64,000 bases of DNA from Escherichia coli. Lineage in GTDB: Bacteria > Pseudomonadota > Gammaproteobacteria > Enterobacterales > Enterobacteriaceae. Location of the stretch: assembly GCF_046105845.1 (NCBI RefSeq), contig NZ_CP151004.1; one strand, given 5' to 3'. The notes under the pieces were generated by a model. That model worked only from the letters and a program-made list of their open reading frames with translations. It was not told the origin of the DNA and made no database searches. The translations under genes and the position numbers were made by a program. Position 1 is the first letter of the stretch. Each line of letters opens with the position of its first letter. Positions 3,941-44,496 of the stretch are shown one piece after another.

Positions 3941-3966
3941 TCGCCGGATGACATCACGCCATCCGG
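3941..3966. terminator. Palindromic hairpin in the 44-bp convergent rihA/ybeL junction (probable bidirectional terminator)
   Basis: GCCGGATG-acatcacgc-CATCCGGC perfect 8-bp inverted repeat. Confidence 0.5.
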
Positions 3967-3980
3967 CACCACTCATTTCA

Positions 3981-4463
3981 TTAAGGCTCGAACGGGCGTC
4001 TCTGGAACTGGTCATGACCACATTTCGGGCATAGCGTCAGCACTTCCGGTGTATAGATCGGGAGATGGAAATGACATTTCTCGCAGACCAGATTTCCCAG
4101 CCCTACCACTTCTCCGCTGTGATAAACCCCGTGATGATTGAGGTCCTGGAAAACTTCGCGCCATTCAAGCTGCGTTTTATCGGTGATGTCTGCCAGCTCC
4201 TGCCACAAGCTTTCTTTAATCACCCGCATAAAGACGCTGTCAGACTCTTCTTTCAGGCTCTCTTCATAGCTCATGGCGAACTCTTCCAGGTCACGTCTGA
4301 CAGCTCGCGTCAGCTCATCGACTTCGGTTCGCGTTAACTCCCCTGTTTTTATTACGCGCTCGCGCGCCTGTTCCACCAGTGCGTCGATATCACGTTCGCC
4401 ATTGCGCAGGCGTTCGCTCAGTGACGCGACCAGTTCACGGTAATATTGAGCAACCTTGTTCAT
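3981..4463 (-). CDS. ybeL: Uncharacterized DUF1451-type protein with C-terminal CxxC...CxxC zinc-ribbon
   Basis: 160-aa ORF MNKVAQYYRELVASLSERL...; CEKCH...CPKCGH motif. Confidence 0.85.
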   Translation of the reverse strand: MNKVAQYYRELVASLSERLRNGERDIDALVEQARERVIKTGELTRTEVDELTRAVRRDLEEFAMSYEESLKEESDSVFMRVIKESLWQELADITDKTQLEWREVFQDLNHHGVYHSGEVVGLGNLVCEKCHFHLPIYTPEVLTLCPKCGHDQFQRRPFEP

Positions 4464-27632: not shown

Positions 27633-28691
27633 ATGTTCGGCAATGATATTTTCACCCGTGTAAAACGTTCAGAAAATAAAAAAATGGCGGAAATTGCCCA
27701 ATTCCTGCATGAAAATGATTTGAGCGTTGACACCACAGTCGAAGTATTTATTACCGTAACCCGCGATGAAAAGCTTATCGCGTGCGGTGGAATTGCCGGA
27801 AATATTATTAAATGCGTTGCTATCAGTGAATCCGTTCGCGGTGAAGGACTGGCGCTGACATTAGCCACCGAGCTAATTAACCTCGCCTATGAGCGGCACA
27901 GCACGCATCTGTTTATTTATACCAAAACCGAATACGAGGCGCTGTTCCGCCAGTGCGGTTTTTCCACGCTGACCAGCGTACCCGGCTTGATGGTGCTGAT
28001 GGAAAACAGCGCCACGCGACTGAAACGCTATGCCGAATCGCTGAAAAAATTTCGTCATCCAGGGAACAAGATTGGCTGCATTGTGATGAACGCCAATCCC
28101 TTTACGAATGGTCACCGTTATCTGATTCAACAGGCTGCAGCACAGTGCGACTGGTTGCATCTGTTTTTAGTTAAAGAAGATTCTTCACGCTTTCCCTATG
28201 AAGACCGGCTGGATCTGGTGTTAAAAGGCACCGCCGATATTCCACGCCTGACTGTGCATCGCGGCTCCGAATACATCATCTCCCGCGCTACGTTCCCTTG
28301 CTACTTCATTAAAGAACAGAGCGTCATTAACCATTGTTACACCGAAATTGATCTGAAGATTTTCCGTCAGTACCTCGCTCCCACGCTGGGTGTAACTCAC
28401 CGCTTTGTCGGTACTGAACCCTTTTGTCGCGTTACCGCCCAGTACAACCAGGATATGCGCTACTGGCTGGAAACGCCGACTATCTCCGCACCGCCCATCG
28501 AACTGGTTGAAATTGAGCGGCTGCGTTACCAGGAGATGCCGATATCCGCTTCCCGGGTACGTCAACTGCTGGCGAAAAACGATCTCACGGCTATCGCGCC
28601 GCTGGTCCCTGCAGTCACGCTGCATTATTTGCAGAACCTGCTTGAGCACTCCCGCCAGGACGCGGCAGCTCGTCAAAAGACCCCCGCATGA
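27633..28691 (+). CDS. citC: [Citrate (pro-3S)-lyase] ligase
   Basis: 352 aa from MFGNDIFTRVKRSE. Confidence 0.9.
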   Translation: MFGNDIFTRVKRSENKKMAEIAQFLHENDLSVDTTVEVFITVTRDEKLIACGGIAGNIIKCVAISESVRGEGLALTLATELINLAYERHSTHLFIYTKTEYEALFRQCGFSTLTSVPGLMVLMENSATRLKRYAESLKKFRHPGNKIGCIVMNANPFTNGHRYLIQQAAAQCDWLHLFLVKEDSSRFPYEDRLDLVLKGTADIPRLTVHRGSEYIISRATFPCYFIKEQSVINHCYTEIDLKIFRQYLAPTLGVTHRFVGTEPFCRVTAQYNQDMRYWLETPTISAPPIELVEIERLRYQEMPISASRVRQLLAKNDLTAIAPLVPAVTLHYLQNLLEHSRQDAAARQKTPA

Positions 28692-28705
28692 GAAACAGGT
28701 GAAAA

Positions 28706-29002
28706 ATGAAAATAAACCAGCCCGCCGTTGCAGGCACCCTTGAGTCTGGGGATGTGATGATACGCATCGCCCCACTCGATACGCAGGATATCGACCTGCA
28801 AATCAACAGCAGCGTTGAGAAACAGTTTGGCGATGCCATTCGCACCACCATTCTGGACGTTCTCGCCCGCTACAACGTGCGCGGCGTACAGCTGAATGTC
28901 GATGACAAAGGCGCACTGGACTGCATTTTACGTGCACGACTGGAAGCCCTGCTGGCACGCGCCAGCGGTATCCCGGCTCTGCCATGGGAGGATTGCCAAT
29001 GA
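28706..29002 (+). CDS. citD: Citrate lyase acyl carrier protein (gamma subunit)
   Basis: 98 aa [25 protein letters not shown]... Confidence 0.95.
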
Positions 29003-29907
29003 TTTCCGCTTCGCTGCAACAACGTAAAACTCGCACCCGCCGCAGCATGTTGTTTGTGCCTGGTGCCAATGCCGCGATGGTCAGCAACTCATTCATCTAC
29101 CCGGCTGATGCCCTGATGTTTGACCTCGAAGACTCCGTGGCATTGCGTGAAAAAGACACAGCCCGCCGCATGGTTTACCACGCGCTGCAACATCCGCTGT
29201 ATCGCGATATTGAAACCATTGTGCGTGTAAACGCGCTGGATTCCGAATGGGGTGTTAACGACCTGGAAGCCGTCGTTCGCGGTGGTGCGGACGTTGTGCG
29301 TCTGCCGAAAACCGATACCGCTCAGGATGTTCTGGATATCGAAAAAGAGATCCTGCGCATCGAAAAAGCCTGTGGTCGTGAACCCGGCAGCACCGGCCTG
29401 CTGGCAGCGATTGAATCTCCGCTGGGCATTACCCGCGCGGTGGAAATCGCTCACGCTTCCGAGCGTTTGATCGGTATCGCCCTCGGTGCAGAAGACTATG
29501 TGCGCAACCTGCGTACAGAACGCTCCCCGGAAGGAACTGAACTGCTGTTCGCACGCTGTTCCATTTTGCAGGCCGCGCGCTCTGCGGGTATTCAGGCGTT
29601 CGATACCGTCTATTCCGACGCTAATAACGAAGCCGGATTCCTGCAAGAAGCCGCCCACATCAAACAGCTGGGCTTTGACGGCAAATCGCTGATCAACCCG
29701 CGTCAGATTGATCTGCTGCACAACCTCTACGCACCGACCCAGAAAGAAGTGGATCACGCCCGCCGCGTCGTAGAAGCCGCTGAAGCCGCCGCTCGCGAAG
29801 GCCTCGGCGTGGTTTCCCTGAACGGCAAGATGGTGGACGGTCCGGTTATCGATCGCGCCCGTCTGGTGCTCTCCCGTGCAGAACTTTCCGGCATCCGCGA
29901 AGAATAA
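28999..29907 (+). CDS. citE: Citrate lyase beta subunit (citryl-ACP lyase)
   Basis: 302 aa from [16 protein letters not shown] overlap with citD. Confidence 0.95.
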
Positions 29908-29917
29908 GGCAATCAAA

Positions 29918-31450
29918 ATGACGCAGAAAATTGAACAATCTCAACGACAAGAACGGGTAGCGGCCTGGAATCGTCGCGCTGAATGCGATCTTGCCGCTTT
30001 CCAGAACTCGCCAAAGCAAACCTACCAGGCTGAAAAAGCGCGCGATCGCAAACTGTGCGCCAACCTGGAAGAAGCGATTCGTCGTTCTGGTTTACAGGAC
30101 GGCATGACGGTTTCCTTCCATCACGCTTTCCGTGGCGGTGACCTGACCGTCAATATGGTGATGGACGTCATCGCGAAGATGGGCTTTAAAAACCTGACTC
30201 TGGCCTCCAGCTCCCTGAGTGATTGCCATGCGCCGCTGGTAGAACACATTCGCCAGGGCGTGGTTACCCGCATTTATACCTCCGGCCTGCGCGGTCCGCT
30301 GGCGGAAGAGATCTCCCGTGGTCTGCTGGCGGAACCGGTGCAAATCCACTCTCACGGCGGACGTGTGCATCTGGTACAGAGCGGCGAACTGAATATCGAC
30401 GTGGCTTTCCTCGGCGTCCCGTCCTGTGATGAATTCGGTAATGCCAACGGCTACACTGGTAAAGCCTGCTGCGGCTCCCTCGGCTATGCAATGGTTGATG
30501 CCGACAACGCGAAACAGGTTGTGATGCTCACTGAAGAACTGCTGCCTTATCCTCATAATCCGGCAAGCATTGAGCAAGATCAGGTTGATCTGATCGTCAA
30601 AGTTGATCGCGTTGGCGATGCCGCGAAAATCGGCGCTGGCGCGACCCGTATGACCACTAACCCGCGCGAACTGCTTATTGCCCGTAGCGCTGCGGATGTG
30701 ATTGTCAACTCTGGCTACTTCAAAGAAGGTTTCTCCATGCAAACCGGCACCGGTGGCGCATCGCTGGCGGTAACCCGTTTCCTGGAAGACAAAATGCGTA
30801 GCCGCGATATTCGCGCCGACTTCGCCCTCGGCGGTATTACCGCGACGATGGTTGACCTGCACGAAAAAGGTCTGATCCGCAAACTGCTGGATGTACAGAG
30901 CTTTGACAGCCACGCTGCGCAATCGCTGGCCCGTAACCCCAATCACATCGAAATCAGCGCCAACCAGTACGCTAACTGGGGTTCAAAAGGCGCATCGGTT
31001 GATCGTCTCGACGTGGTGGTACTGAGCGCGCTGGAAATTGACACCCAGTTCAACGTTAACGTGCTGACCGGCTCTGACGGCGTACTGCGTGGTGCTTCCG
31101 GTGGTCACTGCGATACCGCGATTGCCTCTGCACTTTCCATCATCGTCGCACCGCTGGTACGCGGTCGTATTCCGACTCTGGTGGATAACGTGCTGACCTG
31201 CATCACTCCGGGCTCCAGTGTCGATATTCTGGTCACCGACCACGGTATCGCAGTTAACCCGGCACGTCCGGAACTGGCAGAACGTCTGCAGGAAGCGGGG
31301 ATCAAAGTGGTTTCTATTGAGTGGCTGCGTGAACGTGCGCGTCTGCTGACCGGTGAACCACAGCCGATTGAATTCACCGACCGCGTCGTTGCCGTTGTGC
31401 GTTACCGCGATGGCTCGGTGATCGATGTTGTGCATCAGGTGAAGGAATAA
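29918..31450 (+). CDS. citF: Citrate lyase alpha subunit (citrate CoA-transferase)
   Basis: 510 aa from MTQKIEQSQRQ. Confidence 0.95.
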   Translation: MTQKIEQSQRQERVAAWNRRAECDLAAFQNSPKQTYQAEKARDRKLCANLEEAIRRSGLQDGMTVSFHHAFRGGDLTVNMVMDVIAKMGFKNLTLASSSLSDCHAPLVEHIRQGVVTRIYTSGLRGPLAEEISRGLLAEPVQIHSHGGRVHLVQSGELNIDVAFLGVPSCDEFGNANGYTGKACCGSLGYAMVDADNAKQVVMLTEELLPYPHNPASIEQDQVDLIVKVDRVGDAAKIGAGATRMTTNPRELLIARSAADVIVNSGYFKEGFSMQTGTGGASLAVTRFLEDKMRSRDIRADFALGGITATMVDLHEKGLIRKLLDVQSFDSHAAQSLARNPNHIEISANQYANWGSKGASVDRLDVVVLSALEIDTQFNVNVLTGSDGVLRGASGGHCDTAIASALSIIVAPLVRGRIPTLVDNVLTCITPGSSVDILVTDHGIAVNPARPELAERLQEAGIKVVSIEWLRERARLLTGEPQPIEFTDRVVAVVRYRDGSVIDVVHQVKE

Positions 31451-31453
31451 GCC

Positions 31454-32858
<1,405 letters not shown>

Positions 32859-32908
32859 TTATTTAAGCACTTGATAAATTTGGAAATATTAATTTTCGGA
32901 GAACCCGT

Positions 32909-34372
32909 ATGTCTTTAGCAAAAGATAATATATGGAAACTATTGGCCCCACTGGTGGTGATGGGCGTCATGTTTCTTATCCCTGTCCCCGACGGTATGCC
33001 ACCGCAGGCATGGCATTACTTCGCTGTGTTTGTGGCAATGATTGTCGGCATGATCCTTGAGCCAATTCCGGCAACAGCGATCAGTTTTATTGCGGTTACT
33101 ATTTGCGTTATTGGCAGTAATTACCTGCTCTTTGATGCCAAAGAATTAGCTGACCCAGCGTTTAATGCGCAAAAACAGGCGCTGAAATGGGGTCTGGCTG
33201 GTTTTTCCAGCACCACGGTATGGCTGGTATTTGGCGCATTTATTTTTGCATTAGGGTATGAAGTTTCCGGGTTAGGTCGTCGCATTGCCCTTTTCCTGGT
33301 GAAATTCATGGGCAAACGCACGCTGACGTTGGGTTATGCGATTGTCATTATCGACATTCTGCTGGCACCGTTTACACCGTCCAACACCGCGCGTACTGGC
33401 GGGACCGTTTTTCCGGTCATTAAAAACCTGCCGCCGTTATTTAAATCATTCCCCAACGATCCGTCTTCCCGTCGCATTGGTGGTTATTTGATGTGGATGA
33501 TGGTCATTAGTACCAGTCTGAGTTCTTCCATGTTTGTCACCGGTGCGGCACCAAACGTGCTGGGTCTGGAGTTCGTCAGCAAAATTGCCGGTATCCAGAT
33601 TAGCTGGTTGCAGTGGTTCCTCTGCTTCCTGCCGGTTGGGGTTATCTTGCTTATCATTGCGCCGTGGCTTTCCTACGTGCTGTACAAACCGGAAATCACA
33701 CACAGTGAAGAAGTGGCAACCTGGGCGGGTGATGAACTAAAAACCATGGGTGCGCTGACACGCAGAGAGTGGACGCTGATTGGCCTTGTATTGCTCAGCT
33801 TAGGTTTGTGGGTATTTGGCAGTGAAGTCATTAATGCTACTGCGGTAGGTCTGCTGGCAGTTTCGCTAATGCTGGCCCTGCACGTTGTGCCGTGGAAAGA
33901 CATTACCCGCTATAACAGCGCATGGAACACGCTGGTCAACCTGGCAACTCTGGTTGTGATGGCTAACGGCCTGACTCGTTCTGGTTTTATTGACTGGTTC
34001 GCTGATACCATGAGTACGCACCTGGAAGGATTCTCACCAAACGCAACGGTGATTGTACTGGTTCTGGTGTTCTACTTTGCACACTACCTGTTTGCCAGCC
34101 TGTCTGCGCACACCGCAACCATGCTGCCGGTTATTCTGGCCGTCGGTAAAGGTATTCCGGGCGTACCAATGGAACAACTGTGTATCCTGCTGGTGCTGTC
34201 TATCGGTATCATGGGCTGTCTGACGCCGTATGCAACCGGTCCTGGGGTGATTATTTACGGCTGTGGCTATGTGAAATCAAAAGATTACTGGCGACTTGGT
34301 GCAATCTTCGGGGTGATTTACATCTCTATGCTGCTGTTGGTTGGCTGGCCGATTCTCGCCATGTGGAACTAA
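32909..34372 (+). CDS. citT: Citrate/succinate antiporter
   Basis: 487-aa polytopic membrane protein. Confidence 0.95.
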   Translation: MSLAKDNIWKLLAPLVVMGVMFLIPVPDGMPPQAWHYFAVFVAMIVGMILEPIPATAISFIAVTICVIGSNYLLFDAKELADPAFNAQKQALKWGLAGFSSTTVWLVFGAFIFALGYEVSGLGRRIALFLVKFMGKRTLTLGYAIVIIDILLAPFTPSNTARTGGTVFPVIKNLPPLFKSFPNDPSSRRIGGYLMWMMVISTSLSSSMFVTGAAPNVLGLEFVSKIAGIQISWLQWFLCFLPVGVILLIIAPWLSYVLYKPEITHSEEVATWAGDELKTMGALTRREWTLIGLVLLSLGLWVFGSEVINATAVGLLAVSLMLALHVVPWKDITRYNSAWNTLVNLATLVVMANGLTRSGFIDWFADTMSTHLEGFSPNATVIVLVLVFYFAHYLFASLSAHTATMLPVILAVGKGIPGVPMEQLCILLVLSIGIMGCLTPYATGPGVIIYGCGYVKSKDYWRLGAIFGVIYISMLLLVGWPILAMWN

Positions 34373-34403
34373 TACGTTCGCCAAACGCTGAATAAATCAT
34401 CAC

Positions 34404-34437
34404 GCCCGCCAGGTAAGCCCACCTGGCGGGCTTTTTT
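34404..34437 (+). terminator. Intrinsic terminator after citT
   Basis: GCCCGCCAGGT-aagccc-ACCTGGCGGGC followed by TTTTTT. Confidence 0.8.
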
Positions 34438-34485
34438 ATGATTTAATAGATAGTATTCAGTATATGTATGAGTTCCACACCCATT

Positions 34486-35292
34486 ATGAAAGCATTCTGG
34501 CGTAACGCCGCGTTGCTCGCGGTTTCTCTGCTTCCCTTCTCTTCTGCCAACGCCGTGGCGTTGCAGGCAAAACAGTATGGCGATTTTGATCGCTATGTCC
34601 TGGCCCTCTCCTGGCAAACCGGATTTTGCCAGAGTCAACACGATCGAAATCGTAACGAACGAGATGAATGTCGCCTGCAAACCGAAACGACCAACAAAGC
34701 TGATTTTCTGACCGTACATGGTCTGTGGCCAGGATTGCCTAAATCGGTTGCTGCCCGTGGTGTTGATGAACGCCGCTGGATGCGCTTCGGTTGCGCTACT
34801 CGCCCAATCCCGAATCTGCCAGAAGCACGCGCCAGCCGGATGTGTTCATCGCCGGAAACCGGGTTATCACTGGAAACGGCAGCTAAACTAAGTGAAGTCA
34901 TGCCAGGAGCTGGCGGACGTTCCTGCCTGGAACGCTACGAATATGCCAAACACGGTGCCTGCTTTGGTTTTGATCCAGACGCATACTTCGGCACGATGGT
35001 ACGCCTGAATCAAGAAATTAAAGAGAGCGAAGCCGGAAAATTCCTTGCGGATAACTACGGTAAAACAGTGAGCCGCCGTGACTTTGACGCCGCCTTTGCC
35101 AAAAGCTGGGGAAAAGAGAACGTGAAAGCAGTTAAGCTAACATGCCAGGGTAACCCTGCGTATTTGACTGAAATTCAGATCTCGATCAAAGCTGACGCCA
35201 TCAACGCTCCGCTTTCTGCCAACTCATTCTTGCCACAACCACACCCAGGCAACTGTGGCAAAACCTTTGTGATTGATAAAGCAGGTTATTAA
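34486..35292 (+). CDS. rna: Periplasmic ribonuclease I (RNase T2 family)
   Basis: 268 aa from MKAFWRNAALLAVSLLPFSSANA signal peptide; FLTVHGLWP T2-RNase motif. Confidence 0.93.
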   Translation: MKAFWRNAALLAVSLLPFSSANAVALQAKQYGDFDRYVLALSWQTGFCQSQHDRNRNERDECRLQTETTNKADFLTVHGLWPGLPKSVAARGVDERRWMRFGCATRPIPNLPEARASRMCSSPETGLSLETAAKLSEVMPGAGGRSCLERYEYAKHGACFGFDPDAYFGTMVRLNQEIKESEAGKFLADNYGKTVSRRDFDAAFAKSWGKENVKAVKLTCQGNPAYLTEIQISIKADAINAPLSANSFLPQPHPGNCGKTFVIDKAGY

Positions 35293-35521
35293 TCCTCTGA
35301 TTTACAAAAGACGCTAATTCGTCTTCCATAAACCATGACGATTAAGATTTATACATAATGCGCTGCATTGAGGAATTCCCTGAATGTGACGCAAATCACT
35401 TCAAAGAGTGAGCAACAGTCAGTATCATCATGTGAGTTAAACCCTCGCCGCCTGACGGTGAGGGTTTTCTTTTGGGTATGTTTATCTGCGACACTCGCAG
35501 TACCGACGACATGGAGTAAAA

Positions 35522-35932
35522 ATGTCCAGACCAACTATCATCATTAACGACCTGGATGCCGAACGCATCGATATTCTGCTGGAGCAACCCGCCTATGCTG
35601 GTTTGCCAATCGCCGACGCGTTAAACGCAGAGTTGGATCGCGCCCAAATGTGTTCGCCAGAAGAGATGCCACACGACGTGGTGACAATGAACAGCCGGGT
35701 TAAATTCCGCAATCTTAGCGATGGCGAAGTGCGTGTGCGCACGCTGGTGTATCCGGCAAAAATGACCGACAGCAATACTCAGCTTTCCGTTATGGCTCCG
35801 GTAGGTGCCGCACTGCTGGGGCTGCGCGTTGGCGATTCCATTCACTGGGAACTTCCGGGCGGCGTTGCAACCCACCTTGAAGTGCTGGAACTCGAATACC
35901 AGCCAGAAGCTGCTGGCGACTACCTGCTTTAA
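35522..35932 (+). CDS. rnk: Regulator of nucleoside diphosphate kinase (GreA/GreB-like)
   Basis: 136-aa [25 protein letters not shown]... Confidence 0.9.
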
Positions 35933-35963
35933 TCCCATCTGCACAAGCGATAACTCGCTTTGC

Positions 35964-35991
35964 CCAGAGGATGCACTCGCATCCTCTTTCC
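35964..35991 (+). terminator. Candidate terminator hairpin after rnk
   Basis: GAGGATGC-actc-GCATCCTC then TTTCC. Confidence 0.5.
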
Positions 35992-36074
35992 GCTCAAATA
36001 TCAACCAGATTTATCATTTTGCTCTTAAGCGCAGCATTCTAATCTGAACTGGTTATTCATCTGCGGAACCTCAT

Positions 36075-36164
36075 ATGAGCGAAGCTCTCGGTATCACTGC
36101 ATTTTATATATTCATAGCCGCAATTATTGTTGCTGCAGTGCTATACCTTGAACAACGCTGGTAG
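36075..36164 (+). CDS. Hypothetical 29-aa single-TM hydrophobic peptide (MSEALGITAFYIFIAAIIVAAVLYLEQRW), unannotated candidate
   Basis: ATG-initiated ORF verified codon by codon; one predicted TM helix; no strong SD, so coding status is uncertain. Confidence 0.25.
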   Translation: MSEALGITAFYIFIAAIIVAAVLYLEQRW

Positions 36165-36287
36165 CGCCTGGTTTTATTTATTTTCCAGCTCAATAGCAAA
36201 TTCAGATCAAATCAGCCTCGCAAATCATAGATTCATAACCAATAATGTGCTGTTATGTATACATGCAAAAACAAGGAGAGAATGCTT

Positions 36288-36716
36288 ATGTACAAAACAA
36301 TCATCATGCCAGTTGATGTATTTGAAATGGAATTGAGCGACAAAGCGGTTCGCCACGCTGAATTCCTCGCCCAGGATGACGGAGTTATTCATCTACTTCA
36401 CGTACTACCGGGGTCAGCCAGCCTGAGCCTGCACCGTTTTGCCGCTGATGTACGTCGTTTTGAAGAGCATCTGCAACATGAAGCAGAAGAACGTTTGCAA
36501 ACGATGGTCAGCCACTTCACCATCGATCCTTCCCGCATTAAACAACATGTCCGTTTTGGTAGCGTGCGGGATGAAGTTAACGAGTTAGCGAAAGAACTTG
36601 ATGCAGATGTAGTAGTGATTGGTTCGCGTAACCCATCAATTTCAACTCATCTGTTGGGTTCTAACGCCTCGAGCGTGATCCGCCACGCCAATTTGCCGGT
36701 GCTGGTTGTGCGTTAA
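36288..36716 (+). CDS. uspG: Universal stress protein G
   Basis: 142 aa from [22 protein letters not shown] 8 nt upstream. Confidence 0.9.
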
Positions 36717-36732
36717 TTGCCAGAATAAGTAT

Positions 36733-36768
36733 CCCGCCCTGCCCGGAGCCATCCCGGCGGGGCTTTTT
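36733..36768 (+). terminator. Candidate terminator after uspG
   Basis: GC-rich hairpin CCCGCC...GGCGGGG followed by CTTTTTATT. Confidence 0.5.
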
Positions 36769-36769
36769 A

Positions 36770-36808
36770 TTGCCATAAAAAAGCCGCCAGGTTTGACCCC
36801 GGCGGCTA
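36770..36808 (-). terminator. Intrinsic terminator after ahpF
   Basis: Minus-strand hairpin AGCCGCC...GGCGGCT followed by TTTTTTATGGC. Confidence 0.6.
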
Positions 36809-36836
36809 AGCAATTGCAGGTGAATCTTACTTCTTC

Positions 36837-38402
36837 TTATGCTGTTTTGGTGCGAATCAGGTAGTCAAAAGCACTCAGAGAGGCTTTGGCACCTTCGCCA
36901 GTGGCGATGATGATCTGCTTGTACGGAACCGTTGTACAGTCACCCGCTGCGAACACGCCTTTCACGTTGGTTTCGCATTTCGCATCAATGATAATCTCGC
37001 CCATGCGGTTACGTTCGACTGCGCCTTCGAGCCAGTTGGTGTTCGGCAGCAGACCAATCTGCACGAAAATACCGGCCAGTTCGATGTTGTGAATATCGCC
37101 GCTGACACGATCTCGATATTCCAGACCAATGACTTTGCTGCCGTCGCCTTTCACTTCCGTAGTTTGCGCATTCAGAATAATGTCGACGTTTTTCAGGCTG
37201 CGCAGTTTGTCCTGCAGAACCTGGTCGGCTTTCATTTCTGGCGCAAATTCCAGCAGCGTTACGTGCTCAACGATACCCGCCAGGTCGATTGCCGCTTCCA
37301 CGCCGGAGTTACCGCCGCCGATAACCGCTACGCGTTTGCCTTTAAACAGCGGGCCGTCGCAGTGCGGGCAGTAGGTCACGCCTTTGGTGCGATACTGATC
37401 TTCGCCCGGAACGTTCATGTTGCGCCATTTTGCACCGGTCGCCACGATAATGCTGCGTGCTTTCAGTACCGCGCCAGAAGCTGTTTCAATCTGATGCAGA
37501 CCACCTTCAACCGCTGCCGGGATCAGTTTGCTGGCGCTCTGGCTGTCGATCACATCAACGTCGTATTCATCAACGTGAACTTTCAGCGCTCCTGCCAGCT
37601 TCTGCCCTTCAGTCTTCGGTACAGAAATGTAGTTTTCGATATCAACGGTATCGAGGATCTGACCACCAAAACGTTCGCCCATCAGACCAGTACGGATGCC
37701 TTTACGTGCGGAGTAAATTGCTGCCGCTGCACCCGCTGGGCCGGAACCGACGATTAATACGTCATAAGCATCACGCTTGTTCAGCTCTTCTGCCGCACGT
37801 TTTTCCGCGCCAGTATCAATTTTGGCGACGATTTCAGTCAACGTCATGCGACCCTGACCAAACTCTTTCCCGTTTACGAATACTGCCGGAACGCCCATCA
37901 CGTTGCGATCGGTGATTTCGTTCTGGAAGGTACCTCCGTCAATTGCAGTGTGCTTGATGCGCGGGTTCAGTACGCTCATCAGGTTCAGCGCCTGCACCAC
38001 ATCCGGGCAGTTGTGGCAAGAGAGCGAGTAATAGGTTTCGAATTCAAAATCACCGTCAATATGGCGAATCTGCTCCAGCAGAGACTGCGCTTCTTTCGAC
38101 GGATGACCACCGGTCCACAACAACGCCAGTACCAGCGAGGTAAACTCGTGGCCCAGCGGGGAACCTGCAAAACGTGGCCCCTGGTTAGAACCTGGGTTAG
38201 TGATCAGGAAAGACGGCTTACGCACCGGCAAGCTGTTATCTTCTTTAAAGGTGACTTTGTCTGACAGTTCTGCGATTTCAGCCAACAGTTCCTTGATTTC
38301 TGCCGATTTAGCGCTGTCATCCAGCGTGGCAATTAACTCAACAGGCTTGGTCAATTTCTCAAGGTAAGCCTTGAGTTGAGTTTTCATATTTGTGTCGAGC
38401 AT
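36837..38402 (-). CDS. ahpF: Alkyl hydroperoxide reductase subunit F (flavoprotein disulfide reductase)
   Basis: 521 aa from [21 protein letters not shown] and CPHCDG redox motifs. Confidence 0.95.
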
Positions 38403-38572
38403 GTTTATCTCCTGGGCTTTAAACATCATCATGCAAGCGGCCTCTGCGGCTACCTGGATGCAGCTTGCATCATGGTGCGGGGAAGAAAATCGGGTGCCGC
38501 AGCACCCGAAGAATTAGGTGAATTTCCGAAGTATTTCGCGCCGGAGTTGGTAGCGCGAAAGACGAAGGAAAT

Positions 38573-39136
38573 TTAGATTTTACCAACCAGGTCCAGAGAC
38601 GGAGCCAGAGTTGCTTCACCTTCTTTCCATTTAGCCGGGCAAACTTCACCTGGGTGAGAAGCTACGTACTGTGCTGCTTTGATTTTACGCAGCAGGTCAG
38701 ACGCGTCACGGCCAATGCCTTCAGCGGTAACTTCGATTGCCTGGATGATACCCTGCGGGTCAACAACGAAGGTCGCACGGTCAGCCAGACCTTCATCTTC
38801 ACGCATGTTGTCGAAGTTACGGGTCAGGGCGCCAGTCGGGTCGCCGATCATCGCATATTTGATTTTAGCGATGGTTTCAGAGCTGCTGTGCCATGCTTTG
38901 TGGGTGAAATGAGTATCGGTAGATACTGCGTATACGTCTACGCCCAGTTTCTGCAGTTCTTCGTAGTGGTCAGCAACGTCACCCAGTTCGGTCGGGCATA
39001 CGAAAGTAAAGTCAGCCGGGTAGAAGAAGAAGACGCTCCAGCGGCCTTCGGTATCTTTTTCGGTGATTTCGATGAATTCGCCGTTTTTGAATGCCTGGTT
39101 TTTAAAAGGTTTAATTTTGGTGTTAATCAAGGACAT
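38573..39136 (-). CDS. ahpC: Alkyl hydroperoxide reductase subunit C (peroxiredoxin)
   Basis: 187 aa [21 protein letters not shown]...; peroxidatic Cys in FTFVCPTEL. Confidence 0.97.
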
Positions 39137-39507
39137 CTATACTTCCTCCGTGTTTTCGATGAGATGTAAGGTAACCAATTTTTGCCGATTCGGCTAATGC
39201 GTTTCCATTATCAAATCGATAAGTTTTACCTTACAACCTTCGTAAGACAACTTTGTGAACTTTGCACCGCCAGCGGCGATAAAAAGTAAAATGGCCCCCT
39301 TTCCAGGTGACCGTGTAATCTGAACTACCCTTTGGTATCTTCAGCGCCTGCCTGCAGGCTGAGGTGTTGCCCTTACAAATGCAACAACGACATGGATTAC
39401 AACACCCTCATAAACAAAGGGCAATCACCTGATCTAAGCTCTTACCTATGACAGTGATAGGTTATGCCTTTTACTCGACTTTTGCACTGACTGAAAAGGA
39501 CAAATTA

Positions 39508-40254
39508 ATGTTAAAAAAGATACTTTTACTGGCTCTGCTTCCTGCAATCGCCTTCGCAGAGGAACTTCCTGATCCAGTAAAAGCGATTGAAAAACAGGGC
39601 ATTACAATCATCAAAACGTTCGATGCTCCCGGAGGAATGAAAGGTTATCTCGGCAAGTATCAGGATATGGGCGTCACCATCTACCTGACTCCAGATGGTA
39701 AGCACGCTATCTCTGGTTACATGTACAACGAGAAAGGTGAAAACCTGAGTAACACACTTATCGAAAAAGAAATTTACGCACCAGCCGGACGCGAAATGTG
39801 GCAACGGATGGAACAATCCCACTGGCTCCTCGACGGTAAAAAAGACGCGCCGGTCATTGTCTACGTCTTCGCCGATCCGTTCTGCCCATATTGTAAACAG
39901 TTCTGGCAGCAGGCTCGTCCGTGGGTAGATTCTGGCAAAGTGCAATTAAGAACATTGTTGGTTGGGGTTATCAAACCAGAAAGCCCGGCGACAGCAGCGG
40001 CAATTCTTGCCTCCAAAGATCCCGCAAAAACCTGGCAAGAATATGAAGCCTCTGGTGGCAAGCTTAAGCTAAACGTGCCTGCAAACGTAAGTACAGAGCA
40101 AATGAAAGTGTTAAGCGACAACGAGAAACTCATGGACGATCTGGGGGCAAATGTCACACCAGCTATCTATTACATGAGTAAGGAGAATACGCTGCAACAG
40201 GCCGTGGGGTTGCCCGATCAGAAAACGCTTAATATCATTATGGGGAATAAATAA
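39508..40254 (+). CDS. dsbG: Periplasmic disulfide isomerase DsbG
   Basis: 248 aa from [21 protein letters not shown] active site. Confidence 0.9.
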
Positions 40255-40463
40255 AAGGTAATTCATGGATGGTTGAACTATATCCCTGCTTTTCAACCAT
40301 CCTAAAAAAGCATGAATTGCTCGCTCTGCCCTAAGTGGCTGTGCTATTTTAGTAAAACTTAATCCTGAGTTAAGCAAAAAAAAATAATCAATAAAAATAT
40401 ATACGCAAAAAAACATTGATTAAGTGAATATATCATGGAAGAAAAATATAACCGGAGTAGTGT

Positions 40464-41366
40464 ATGGCCAATCTCTACGACTTGAAAAAGTTCGACTTAA
40501 ATCTTCTTGTCATATTTGAGTGTATTTATCAGCATTTAAGCATTAGCAAGGCTGCTGAATCACTATATATCACCCCGTCAGCCGTGAGCCAGTCGTTACA
40601 ACGCTTACGTGCGCAATTTAATGACCCTTTATTCATTCGCTCAGGAAAAGGTATCGCGCCGACGACGACAGGGTTAAATCTGCATCACCATCTTGAGAAA
40701 AATCTCAGAGGCCTTGAACAAACAATTAATATAGTCAATAAGTCCGAACTAAAGAAAAACTTTATTATCTACGGTCCTCAGCTCATTTCTTGCTCTAATA
40801 ATAGTATGCTGATCCGCTGCCTACGGCAAGATGCCTCTGTCGAGATTGAGTGCCATGATATCCTCATGTCAGCAGAGAATGCTGAAGAACTGTTGGTTCA
40901 CCGCAAAGCCGATCTGGTGATCACCCAAATGCCAGTGATCAGCCGTTCCGTCATTTGCATGCCATTGCATACAATTCGCAATACTCTAATTTGTAGTATT
41001 AAGCATCCGCGAATTACTGACAATAGCACTTATGAACAAATTATGGCAGAAGAGTTCACCCAATTAATATCCAAATCAGCAGGAGTTGATGATATTCAAA
41101 TGGAAATAGACGAGAAGTTTATGAATCGCAAAATTTCATTTCGTGGTTCCTCTTTGCTGACAATCATTAATAGCATTGCAGTTACAGATTTACTGGGAAT
41201 AGTCCCCTATGAACTTTATAACTCCCACCGTGACTTTCTTAATTTAAAAGAGATAAAACTAGAACATCCGTTACCTTCAATAAAGCTTTACATTTCCTAT
41301 AATAAATCTTCTTTAAACAATCTGGTGTTCTCACGATTTATTGACCGTCTAAATGAGTGTTTTTGA
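40464..41366 (+). CDS. ybdO: LysR-family transcriptional regulator, uncharacterized
   Basis: 300 aa, N-terminal HTH (LYITPSAVSQSLQRLR); AT-rich gene. Confidence 0.85.
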   Translation: MANLYDLKKFDLNLLVIFECIYQHLSISKAAESLYITPSAVSQSLQRLRAQFNDPLFIRSGKGIAPTTTGLNLHHHLEKNLRGLEQTINIVNKSELKKNFIIYGPQLISCSNNSMLIRCLRQDASVEIECHDILMSAENAEELLVHRKADLVITQMPVISRSVICMPLHTIRNTLICSIKHPRITDNSTYEQIMAEEFTQLISKSAGVDDIQMEIDEKFMNRKISFRGSSLLTIINSIAVTDLLGIVPYELYNSHRDFLNLKEIKLEHPLPSIKLYISYNKSSLNNLVFSRFIDRLNECF

Positions 41367-41512
41367 TATATAACTTCAGACAGCTACTATAACTTTCACC
41401 TATTTATTCACAGCGCGAATGAAAAATAAAACACTCTGCTTTTCAGTGTTTACTTTATAATTAACAGTCTTATCTCACTGATCACCCTGTAACGTTCAGA
41501 GAGCGTCTTCAG

Positions 41513-42733
41513 ATGTCTATTTATAAAATTCCTCTTCCGCTCAATATTCTGGAAGCTGCAAAAGAACGTATTACCTGGACACTTAACACCCTACCCCGCG
41601 TTTGTGTCTCATTTTCTGGCGGCAAAGACTCTGGTTTAATGCTGCATCTGACAGCCGAACTTGCTCGACAAATGGGCAAAAAAATCTGTGTTTTGTTTAT
41701 CGACTGGGAGGCGCAATTCTCTTGCACCATTAACTATGTTCAGTCCCTGCGCGAGTTGTACACCGATGTGATCGAAGAGTTTTACTGGGTTGCGCTCCCG
41801 CTTACGACGCAAAATTCCCTTTCACAATACCAACCCGAATGGCAGTGCTGGGAACCTGATGTCGAATGGGTACGTCAGCCCCCGCAAGATGCGATAACCG
41901 ATCCTGACTTTTTCTCCTTTTACCAGCCTGGCATGACCTTCGAACAATTTGTGCGTGAGTTTGCCGAATGGTTTTCGCAAAAACGCCCGGCGGCGATGAT
42001 GATCGGCATCCGTGCGGATGAGTCCTACAACCGTTTTGTCGCCATCGCCAGTTTAAATAAACAACGTTTTGCCGACGATAAACCCTGGACTACGGCCGCA
42101 CCAGGCGGGCATAGCTGGTACATTTACCCCATTTACGACTGGAAAGTGGCTGATATCTGGACCTGGTATGCAAATCATCAAAGTCTCTGCAACCCACTGT
42201 ATAACCTAATGTATCAGGCAGGCGTTCCTCTGCGTCATATGCGAATTTGCGAACCTTTTGGCCCGGAGCAACGACAAGGATTATGGCTCTATCACGTTAT
42301 CGAACCGGATCGCTGGGCTGCTATGTGCGCACGAGTCAGCGGGGTAAAAAGTGGCGGCATTTACGCCGGACATGACAATCATTTTTATGGTCATCGGAAA
42401 ATCCTCAAGCCCGAACATTTAGACTGGCAGGAGTATGCATTATTGCTACTCAACAGCATGCCGGAGAAAACAGCTGAGCATTATCGCAATAAAATCGCCA
42501 TTTATTTGCACTGGTATCAGAAAAAAGGCATCGAGGTTCCACAAACCCAGCAAGGGGACATTGGCGCGAAAGATATCCCCTCCTGGCGGCGAATATGCAA
42601 AGTTTTACTCAATAACGATTACTGGTGTCGGGCATTATCATTTAGCCCGACCAAAGCGAAGAACTATCAGCGTTATAACGAACGAATAAAAGGAAAACGT
42701 CAGGAATGGGGGATACTATGCAACAACGATTAA
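41513..42733 (+). CDS. ybdN: PP-loop ATPase / PAPS-reductase-like protein (IbrA-like), uncharacterized
   Basis: 406 aa; PP-loop SFSGGKDS motif visible in translation. Confidence 0.85.
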   Translation: MSIYKIPLPLNILEAAKERITWTLNTLPRVCVSFSGGKDSGLMLHLTAELARQMGKKICVLFIDWEAQFSCTINYVQSLRELYTDVIEEFYWVALPLTTQNSLSQYQPEWQCWEPDVEWVRQPPQDAITDPDFFSFYQPGMTFEQFVREFAEWFSQKRPAAMMIGIRADESYNRFVAIASLNKQRFADDKPWTTAAPGGHSWYIYPIYDWKVADIWTWYANHQSLCNPLYNLMYQAGVPLRHMRICEPFGPEQRQGLWLYHVIEPDRWAAMCARVSGVKSGGIYAGHDNHFYGHRKILKPEHLDWQEYALLLLNSMPEKTAEHYRNKIAIYLHWYQKKGIEVPQTQQGDIGAKDIPSWRRICKVLLNNDYWCRALSFSPTKAKNYQRYNERIKGKRQEWGILCNND

Positions 42734-43335
42734 CGCAGGATTTAACCCAATTTCTCGCCAGCTTGCCGGAAGACGATCGCATCAAAGCGATTAATGAAAT
42801 CCGCATGGCGATCCATCAGGTTAGCCCCTTTCGAGAAGAGCCAGTGGATTGCGTTCTGTGGGTTAAAAACAGCCAACTTATGCCTAATGATTACAACCCA
42901 AACAACGTGGCACCACCCGAAAAAAAACTGCTGAAAAAATCCATTGAAATAGATGGTTTTACCCAACCCATTGTGGTCACGCATACGGATAAAAATGCCC
43001 TGGAAATCGTGGATGGTTTTCACCGCCATGAAATTGGTAAAGGCTCATCATCGTTAAAATTACGCTTAAAAGGTTATTTGCCGGTGACCTGTCTGGAAGG
43101 TACGCGTAATCAACGCATCGCCGCGACTATTCGTCATAATCGCGCCCGTGGACGTCACCAAATCACTGCCATGTCAGAAATCGTCCGTGAACTCAGCCAG
43201 TTGGGATGGGACGATCATAAAATCGGCAAAGAGCTGGGAATGGACGGCGACGAAGTGCTGCGCCTGAAGCAAATTAACGGCCTGCAAGAACTGTTTGCCG
43301 ACCGTCAATTTTCCCGCGCCTGGACGGTTAAATAA
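42706..43335 (+). CDS. ybdM: ParB-like nuclease-domain protein (IbrB-like), uncharacterized
   Basis: 209 aa; IVDGFHRH ParB/Srx-type motif; 28-bp overlap with ybdN. Confidence 0.8.
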   Translation: MGDTMQQRLTQDLTQFLASLPEDDRIKAINEIRMAIHQVSPFREEPVDCVLWVKNSQLMPNDYNPNNVAPPEKKLLKKSIEIDGFTQPIVVTHTDKNALEIVDGFHRHEIGKGSSSLKLRLKGYLPVTCLEGTRNQRIAATIRHNRARGRHQITAMSEIVRELSQLGWDDHKIGKELGMDGDEVLRLKQINGLQELFADRQFSRAWTVK

Positions 43336-44496
43336 CTACAGCTGGCGCAGGCGTTCAGCTGCTGCCAGCAACGTCGATTCCTTCTTGGCAAAACAGAGAC
43401 GAATCAGTTTATGGGGGAAGGGATCGGCGCAAAACACCGACAGCGGAATCGCCGCTACACCGTGCTCCCGCGTCAGCCACTGGCAAAACTCAACGTCATC
43501 CAGGGTAGAAACCGCGCTGTAATCCACCAGCAAAAAGTATGTACCTTCACACGGTAAAATCTCCAGCCGGCTTTCATTTAAAGCATTCACCAGAATATCG
43601 CGTTTCTGGCGATAAAAGTCCGGTAACGCAAGATAATGCTCAGGTTCTGCACGTAGCATATCCGCAAGTGCCAGCTGTGCCGGGGTATTCACCGAAAAGG
43701 TCAGATACTGGTGTACCTTGCGAATTTCAGCGCTGATGGGCGCTGGCGCAACGCAATAACCCACTTTCCAGCCGGTCATATGATAGGTCTTGCCAAATGA
43801 AGAAACTGCCACCGCCCGCTCACGCAGCTGCGGATGCGCCAGCACGCTGGCATGGCCCTGTTGTGAAAAGTTGATGTGCTCGTAAACTTCATCGCTAATG
43901 ACAAAAATCTCGTGCCCGCCGATCGCCTGCCACAGAGCGGAGAAATCAGCCTGCTGCCAGACAGTTGCACTGGGGTTATGCGGGGTGTTGAGGATCACCA
44001 GTCGGGTGCGCTCGCTTAACAATGCGGCAAATTCCTGCCAGTCCACGCGAAAATGCGGTGGTTGCAGTGCAATACGTTTCACTATTCCCCCCGAAAGCGC
44101 GATGGCGGGCGCGTAACTGTCATAGCTGGGATCAAAGCAGATCACTTCATCACCATTGCGCACCAATGCGGTAATCGCTGCATATAACGCTTCCGTCGCC
44201 CCTGCCGTTACGGTGATATCGCTATCGGCATCCGGTTGATAGCCATACAGACGTTCCGTTTTCTGAGCAATCGCCTCGCGCAAGGCCTGCACGCCAGTCA
44301 TAGGCGCGTATTGGTTTGCCCCCTGGGCAACGTGGTACGCCAGCCGCTCTTGTAAATAGCGCGGACCATCAAAATCAGGAAAGCCTTGCGAAAGGTTAAT
44401 CGCCTGGTGTTGCTGCGCCAGCGCGCTCATCTGGGTGAAAATAGTGGTGCCAAGTTGTGGAAGTTTGCTTTGTGGAATCAGAGGGTTATTTGTCAT
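43336..44496 (-). CDS. ybdL: PLP-dependent methionine aminotransferase
   Basis: 386 aa; fold-type I aminotransferase with SFGKT PLP-lysine motif. Confidence 0.9.
   Translation of the reverse strand: MTNNPLIPQSKLPQLGTTIFTQMSALAQQHQAINLSQGFPDFDGPRYLQERLAYHVAQGANQYAPMTGVQALREAIAQKTERLYGYQPDADSDITVTAGATEALYAAITALVRNGDEVICFDPSYDSYAPAIALSGGIVKRIALQPPHFRVDWQEFAALLSERTRLVILNTPHNPSATVWQQADFSALWQAIGGHEIFVISDEVYEHINFSQQGHASVLAHPQLRERAVAVSSFGKTYHMTGWKVGYCVAPAPISAEIRKVHQYLTFSVNTPAQLALADMLRAEPEHYLALPDFYRQKRDILVNALNESRLEILPCEGTYFLLVDYSAVSTLDDVEFCQWLTREHGVAAIPLSVFCADPFPHKLIRLCFAKKESTLLAAAERLRQL

Follow-up and report, generated by a model that had tools for sequence, protein, structure and literature searches.

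The short rnk-uspG junction of an Escherichia coli genome and the 29-codon reading frame, very probably yldA, that it holds

What occupies the interval between rnk and uspG in an Escherichia coli genome that lacks a dehydrogenase gene at this position, and is the small hydrophobic open reading frame (ORF) found there a gene, a toxin or a remnant? The question is raised by a 64,000-nucleotide (nt) stretch of contig NZ_CP151004.1 (assembly GCF_046105845.1), referred to here as the window, in which rnk ends at 35932 and the ATG of uspG lies at 36288, leaving a gap of 355 base pairs (bp; 35933-36287). The ORF in question lies at 36075-36164. No ORF located wholly within the gap, on either strand, exceeds 31 amino acids in the ORF list, but several of 22-31 codons occur there and a length of 29 codons alone is unremarkable; the ORF at 36075-36164 is distinguished by its conservation and not by its length. 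The evidence presented below indicates that this ORF is very probably yldA, an already known small membrane protein gene, and that the locus is in an ordinary short haplotype.

The reading frame between rnk and uspG

The ORF, which begins with the first ATG to follow an in-frame stop, comprises 29 codons plus a TAG stop, with MSEALGITAFYIFIAAIIVAAVLYLEQRW as its translated product. Residues 4-25 show a mean Kyte-Doolittle hydropathy of 2.5, which fits one transmembrane helix. The identical peptide is named 'small membrane protein YldA' in RefSeq (WP_001287361.1; strains C4 and PKF4), and the ORF is annotated as yldA wherever the full junction is matched in a megablast comparison of positions 35522-36716 against 5,426 complete E. 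coli genomes. Furthermore, the product passes the NCBIfam equivalog model for YldA (NF041476; Bitscore: 59 against a cut-off of 45; e-value: 3.2e-16), with residues 1-29 aligned to profile positions 1-29 of 29. In E. coli K-12 MG1655, yldA is annotated as b4734 (643330-643419), between ybdR and rnk, and its protein product (MAEAFYILIGFLIMAAIIVMAVLYLENHS) is one of 36 small proteins that were detected in lysogeny broth cultures by means of a chromosomal sequential peptide affinity (SPA) tag and immunoblotting (VanOrsdel 2018, PMC6001520). The ORF of the window occupies the orthologous position, starting 142 bp past the rnk stop on the same strand, as compared to 137 bp in K-12, and 35 further loci are arranged alike.

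An earlier note on this DNA, prepared from the sequence alone, had pointed to a short junction free of long ORFs, a hairpin behind rnk and a 29-residue hydrophobic product with a single predicted helix, and had placed a dehydrogenase gene at this position in K-12. All four points are upheld, the hairpin being located at 35966-35987 and the K-12 gene being ybdR, a 1,239-bp Zn-dependent alcohol dehydrogenase gene. The suggestion that the product might be an unannotated membrane peptide is contradicted by the RefSeq name of the exact peptide and by the b4734 entry of MG1655.

The K-12 protein (YP_009518757.1; NF041476, PF23689) and that of the window are both 29 amino acids in length, are encoded ~140 bp past the end of rnk and in its orientation, fall under NF041476, and share the core AAIIV-x-AVLYLE along with E3, A21, V22, L25 and E26. 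The two alleles are, however, highly divergent, with 52% amino acid and 54% nucleotide identity, a proportion of synonymous differences (pS) of 0.80 and no similarity detectable by blastn. The gene context likewise differs, as the K-12 gene ends 3 bp from the stop of the convergent ybdR, while a 123-bp spacer separates that of the window from the co-oriented uspG. The allele of the window is here termed type I and that of K-12 type II. The features of the junction, several of which are considered in the following sections, are:

35522-35932, + strand: rnk coding sequence (nucleoside diphosphate kinase regulator), the left anchor of the junction (ORF list; RefSeq; 99.6-100% identity to K-12)
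35941-35963, + strand: first small hairpin of the rnk 3′ region, GCACAAGCGAT-AACT-CGCTTTGC (minimum-free-energy fold of 35925-36080)
35966-35987, + strand: rnk 3′ hairpin, AGAGGATGC-ACTC-GCATCCTCT, followed by TTTCCG and located 34 nt past the rnk stop (fold; motif search)
35994-36269, no strand: haplotype-specific segment of 276 bp, opposite 1,611 bp in K-12 (blastn against K-12)
36065-36068, + strand: Shine-Dalgarno-like GGAA, 6 nt upstream of the yldA ATG (sequence)
36075-36164, + strand: very probable yldA coding sequence, type I allele, for a 29-residue predicted single-pass small membrane protein (RefSeq; NF041476; synteny; codon substitution pattern)
36165-36287, + strand: yldA-uspG spacer of 123 bp, AT-rich and unstructured (fold; terminator scan; blastn)
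36273-36279, + strand: Shine-Dalgarno sequence of uspG, AAGGAGA (sequence)
36288-36716, + strand: uspG coding sequence (universal stress protein G), the right anchor (RefSeq annotation)
36560-36659, + strand: divergent patch within uspG, 83% identity to K-12 (100-bp sliding identity in a MAFFT alignment of the window against K-12)

In the RefSeq records of near-identical genomes, the gene order is citT, rna, rnk, a 90-bp coding sequence and uspG, followed by ahpF and ahpC on the opposite strand.

The conservation of the ORF was evaluated across 82 loci, of which 80 were derived from species representatives and anchored on Rnk, with strains C4 and K-12 added; E. fergusonii and the GTDB representative of E. 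coli are not among the 80. In 37/82 loci, a profile built from the two E. coli alleles picked up a homologue encoded on the same strand as rnk; these loci are distributed among the genera Escherichia, Citrobacter, Enterobacter, Lelliottia, Leclercia, Phytobacter and Kosakonia. The start codon is situated 124-150 bp past rnk in all but two of these loci, the length is 29 codons in all but one, and in the other genera a purine-rich GGA/GGGG element is found 6-9 nt upstream. Seven synonymous and no non-synonymous changes separate the yldA of the window from that of E. albertii. Among 36 homologues the ratio of non-synonymous to synonymous substitution rates (dN/dS) is approximately 0.27, third positions vary in 28 of the 29 codons, and the entropy at the third codon position (1.19) exceeds that at the first (0.66) and second (0.48). 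M1, E3, A21, V22, L25 and E26 are invariant and I7, A16, V19, L23 and Y24 nearly so. These substitution patterns indicate that yldA is under purifying selection.

The gene is annotated in essentially all E. coli genomes, the exceptions seen being HS-02, an indel-ridden assembly, and HH97. The YldA protein of strain S88 (WP_001287360.1; 782-871 of its locus) carries an L25F substitution at a residue that is otherwise invariant across genera. In the Salmonella enterica subsp. diarizonae and arizonae loci, the rnk hairpin and ybdR are kept but rnk and the ybdR stop lie only ~90 bp apart; no yldA homologue was detected in these loci, where the gene seems to be missing.

Two haplotypes of the rnk-uspG interval

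Alignment of the junction to K-12 places sharp boundaries at 35993 and 36270. The two sequences are ~99% identical up to 35993, at the end of the rnk 3′ hairpin, which is the last sequence common to both before they diverge, and alignment resumes at 36270, at a distance of 18 bp from the uspG ATG. In the interval, the 276 bp of the window stand where K-12 has 1,611 bp comprising its yldA allele, ybdR and the ybdR-uspG intergenic region. No similarity of 35994-36269 to the K-12 segment, including remnants of ybdR, was found by blastn (word size 7) or tblastn, and no direct repeats or scars were evident by eye at the boundaries. The short layout thus consists of rnk, the hairpin, type I yldA, the 123-bp spacer and uspG, and the long layout of K-12 of rnk, the hairpin, type II yldA, the convergent ybdR, a 220-bp divergent promoter region and uspG.

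The short form, as defined by the 276 bp of the window, is present in 1,817 of the 5,426 complete E. coli genomes and the long form, as defined by the K-12 segment, in 3,605. The two sets are mutually exclusive and their sum, 5,422, equals the number of genomes holding rnk/uspG. Short and long forms are alternative alleles of one locus, both common at about one third and two thirds respectively, and the presence or absence of ybdR is ordinary accessory-genome variation. Carriers of the short form include S88 and Nissle (EcN), which belong to phylogroup B2, while K-12, O157:H7, O111 and O121, of phylogroups A, E and B1, carry the long form.

The divergence extends to the uspG side of the junction. 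The region upstream of uspG is non-homologous to that of K-12 except for its last ~18 bp, and the 36165-36287 spacer must hold the putative uspG promoter of the short haplotype. The uspG gene itself shows 94% nucleotide identity to K-12, as opposed to 98-100% for its neighbors (rnk: 100%; rna and ahpF: 98%), with three amino acid differences in the UspG protein. Identity falls to 83% in the patch at 36560-36659 against 98-99% around it, and this patch is probably a footprint of mosaic recombination. Of the UspG alleles, WP_001308472.1 accompanies the short haplotype and WP_000278509.1 the long one, and the short-form strain PKF4 has a third; judged by these sequences, the uspG allele is linked to the haplotype. 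For the 16 kb at 28000-44000, the top match among the 5,426 genomes shows 98.8% identity, and all of the genomes fall in the 95-99% band. By this measure, the window derives from a lineage, or is a mosaic, without a close relative among those genomes.

Outside E. coli, the short architecture with the same YldA was also observed in three Escherichia representatives, one of which is E. albertii. Identity to the window across the yldA region is 88% in E. albertii and 95% in the other two lineages, the rna genes of which are, across all three, 84-93% identical to that of K-12. The type I intergenic region and allele can be followed further to a group of Citrobacter species (R56, NCU1, Awk 4 and S646; ~72% identity), while the type II allele and intergenic region of K-12 are common to C. 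sedlakii, C. koseri and C. amalonaticus-like genomes. The ybdR gene of K-12 is 80-81% identical to those of Salmonella and C. sedlakii, a divergence like that of rnk (82-83%) and ahpF (82-85%), so that the long cassette is not a recent import from these genera. Moreover, ybdR is both present and absent within Enterobacter and type II Citrobacter, as a clean indel extending from just past the yldA stop to ~80 bp before uspG. The indels in these two genera have the same boundaries as in Escherichia, with ~60 bp of unique sequence in place of ~1.35 kb.

As both allele classes and the ybdR indel recur in Citrobacter and Enterobacter, the dimorphism appears to be old, with homologous recombination as the means of its redistribution. 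A long-standing split into allele classes, together with an old ybdR indel, would have been moved through the flanking rnk and uspG/ahpF genes, with the indel bounded by sequences that must be kept, namely yldA and the uspG promoter. Given that the short form is common to other Escherichia species, it is most likely that the K-12 cassette was never present in the lineage of the window, and less likely that ybdR was lost.

The rnk 3′ hairpin and the expression of yldA

The stem of the rnk 3′ hairpin (AGAGGATGC/GCATCCTCT) occurs once in the window, where no occurrence is expected by chance. Some 35-45 nt past rnk, the exact stem was found in 55/82 loci across genera, with freely varying loops, and in almost every other locus the stem differs by G-U or compensatory variants, which pair on the + strand only. 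It is far more conserved than rnk, which shows 72-84% nucleotide identity outside Escherichia, and this suggests a sequence-specific role beyond termination. The hairpin has no match among the Rfam families and was not called by the consensus terminator scan, its T-run being only three long; it is probably a (leaky) terminator or a stabilizer of the rnk transcript. The AAGCG/CGCTT arms of the smaller hairpin at 35941-35963 were found in most of the genera aligned. In C. amalonaticus AUH_CA_2023_1, two copies of the rnk 3′ hairpin are present (3945-3964 and 4108-4127 of its locus) and the rnk-yldA gap is 313 bp as compared to ~140 bp elsewhere, the intergenic region apparently being locally duplicated.

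A promoter for yldA could not be assigned from the cross-genus alignment, in which a TAATCTG motif ~30 nt upstream of the gene is only partly conserved. The spacing between rnk and yldA is constant across genera, which suggests read-through and/or a weak promoter, and yldA is probably transcribed by read-through of the weak rnk hairpin and/or from a weak promoter of its own. Downstream of the gene, no terminator-like site was called in 36140-36295 by the consensus scan, and this region has less structure than shuffled sequences (fold z-score: +1.8). With no terminator and little structure ahead of uspG, yldA and uspG may be co-transcribed in the short haplotype, in which yldA transcripts could run on into uspG. 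The situation in K-12 would be different, as ybdR-yldA is listed there as a convergent excludon (PMC12288877) and transcription of yldA would collide with that of ybdR.

Regulatory elements were additionally observed on either side of the junction. The known rnk leader (Rfam RF01771; Bitscore: 124.9) is located at 35368-35476, with a terminator-like hairpin at 35439-35467 and a promoter-like site at 35400-35428. The convergent uspG/ahpF junction (36731-36808) contains GC-rich hairpins, including a minus-strand terminator-like site at 36807-36782, and is probably a bidirectional terminator.

Likeness to YoaI and alternative readings

A possible pointer to the function of YldA is provided by YoaI (b1788), a 34-residue, PhoB-regulated small inner-membrane protein which binds and activates the sensor kinase EnvZ (PMC11429745). 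The YldA protein of the window scores 30 bits (e-value: 4e-7) on the NCBIfam YoaI model (NF041475), below the 45-bit cut-off, and is as such not a YoaI ortholog but is treated as a probable paralog. A profile of 30 YldA sequences aligns with K-12 YoaI over 27 residues in register +5 (hhalign probability: 91%; e-value: 1e-6). Real YoaI scores 18.6 bits, a value reached by none of 2,000 full shuffles (maximum: 9.4 bits) and by one of 2,000 helix-core shuffles. In YoaI, S26, V27 and E31 are invariant in 57 orthologs, E31 lies in the cytoplasmic tail, and the substitutions E31A/Q abolish both the binding and the activation of EnvZ (Vellappan et al. 2025, PMC11429745). In register +5, these three residues fall on A21, V22 and E26 of YldA, with Ser replaced by Ala at the first position; these are three of the six invariant YldA residues, conserved in all 30-36 homologues, and YoaI E8 aligns with the invariant E3. 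YldA thus looks like a paralog of YoaI, sharing its single-pass form and the position of its invariant residues. It differs in its locus (rnk-uspG as opposed to yeaK-yeaL for YoaI) and in lacking the five extra N-terminal residues of YoaI. The published data on the binding and activation of EnvZ concern YoaI.

On this basis, YldA would cross the inner membrane once, its short N-terminus with the invariant Glu3 lying outside and its tail, E26-x-x-W, inside. It would modulate a larger membrane protein, most likely a membrane sensor kinase contacted via Glu26. The proposed mode, a membrane-anchored small protein that tunes a histidine kinase, is that of MgrB-PhoQ, SafA-PhoQ and MzrA-EnvZ, although these have no sequence relationship to YldA and serve as functional analogues only, the function of YldA itself being conjectural. 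Modulation of a sensor kinase through Glu26, with the tail inside, is offered as a tentative proposal that we consider possible but less likely than not. The main competitor, to which we give somewhat less than even weight, is that the partner is a transporter or membrane enzyme, as for AcrZ, KdpF and MgtS, and that the YoaI likeness reflects a shared helix scaffold. Transporters or enzymes are the targets of most small membrane proteins characterized so far (PMC12648545), the similarity to YoaI is short and its reciprocal score weak, and the conserved neighbors rnk, uspG and ahpCF give no hint of a kinase. The coincidence of the invariant positions in register (E3/E8, A21-V22/S26-V27 and E26/E31) and a similarity exceeding that of composition-matched shuffles, however, argue against a mere scaffold. 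A still broader proposal combines these elements into an old two-state locus in several genera, in which type II YldA would be opposed by ybdR transcription, type I would read into uspG, a YoaI-like kinase contact would be made via Glu26, and the haplotypes would represent heritably different stress-signaling set-points maintained by selection and not by drift. As a whole, we regard this proposal as improbable.

Other origins of the junction and its ORF were also considered. The earlier note had proposed that this strain had either suffered a deletion or never acquired ybdR. Recent loss of ~1.3 kb including ybdR from a K-12-like arrangement, with the ORF left beside the scar, would be in keeping with the occurrence of ybdR at this position in K-12 and two thirds of the complete E. 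coli genomes, and with its wide distribution in the Enterobacteriaceae, where real deletions do occur. One such case, E. coli HH97 (NZ_CP116409.1; 2577-2921 of its locus), has recently lost ybdR within K-12-type flanks; 192 bp of the gene persist there as a pseudogene fragment, and YldA has become a 46-residue fusion that includes 19 foreign residues. The junction of the window looks different from this fresh event: it holds no ybdR fragment, its segment lacks detectable similarity to K-12 even across the divergent yldA, and the identical architecture recurs in E. albertii and the two other Escherichia lineages at 88-95% identity. Simple deletion is therefore highly improbable, since a segment with a divergent yldA and a different uspG upstream region stands in place of the 1,611 bp of K-12, and the second suggestion, that ybdR was never acquired, comes closer to the truth in that other Escherichia share the short form. 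The remaining suggestions of the earlier note, that the ORF is a type-I-toxin-like element or simply a remnant, fare no better. A chance ORF or decaying remnant devoid of coding function is extremely unlikely. In its favor, ORFs of 22-31 codons are frequent in the gap, the GGAA Shine-Dalgarno element is weak and no consensus promoter was found. Against it, the substitutions are codon-position-specific (as in the all-synonymous comparison with E. albertii), the 29-codon length is fixed across genera together with the invariant residues, annotation of the gene is lacking in just a handful of the 5,422 genomes, and the K-12 protein has been detected. A type I toxin-antitoxin-like element, in which a hydrophobic toxic peptide is checked by an antisense or overlapping RNA, would accord with a short hydrophobic single-helix peptide, of a size and hydrophobicity like those of Hok, Ldr, Ibs, ShoB, TisB and DinQ, with the overlap of the K-12 yldA transcript by convergent ybdR transcription, and with the growth delay caused by overexpression of the probable paralog YoaI (PMC11429745). 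YldA nevertheless differs from these toxins in that it occurs as one copy whose syntenic site is constant from genus to genus, in contrast to type I loci, which are patchy and multi-copy, and in that YldA-SPA accumulates at native level in normally growing K-12 (PMC6001520). The ybdR transcript is, moreover, absent in the short haplotype and yet the gene is intact in ~1,816 genomes. Searches of Pfam, NCBIfam and PADLOC matched YldA to no toxin family, and no defense system was called by PADLOC. An Rfam scan of both strands of 34000-38000 (e-value up to 1) returned, apart from the known rnk leader, only the chance-level families snoZ223 and ncr1175, and no described antisense RNA family. We consider a type I toxin very unlikely.

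Several points nevertheless weigh against the assignment of the ORF to yldA and the interpretation built on it. The allele of the window does not reach the gathering score of 27 for the Pfam YldA-like family (PF23689; Bitscore: 22.9; e-value: 9e-5), while the K-12 allele scores 73.6, which is taken to mean that the model leans towards K-12-type sequences; orthology is as such based on NCBIfam, synteny and the profile constructed here, and not on Pfam. Synthesis has been demonstrated for the K-12 allele only, while that of the window allele is deduced from purifying selection. The consensus promoter scan identified no sigma-70-like promoter in the gap, making the transcription model conjecture. 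With regard to the history of the locus, ybdR is widespread (Salmonella, Enterobacter, Leclercia and C. sedlakii) and could be ancestral, and E. fergusonii falls outside the sample. The similarity to YoaI covers 27 residues in a hydrophobic helix, and the reciprocal match, of YoaI on the YldA model, is weak (Bitscore: 14; e-value: 0.035). Finally, no study of the function, partner or topology of YldA was found in the literature searched.

The assignment of the ORF to yldA matters little as a discovery, as the gene has already been named and catalogued and its K-12 product detected. The YoaI paralogy and the dimorphism of allele and context represent modest leads rather than discoveries. As E. 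coli strains carry either of two highly dissimilar YldA alleles, each in its own transcriptional context, results obtained in K-12 may not transfer to B2 strains such as Nissle and S88. The probable paralogy with YoaI, with its critical glutamate conserved, would narrow the 'function unknown' status of YldA to a specific sensor-kinase hypothesis.

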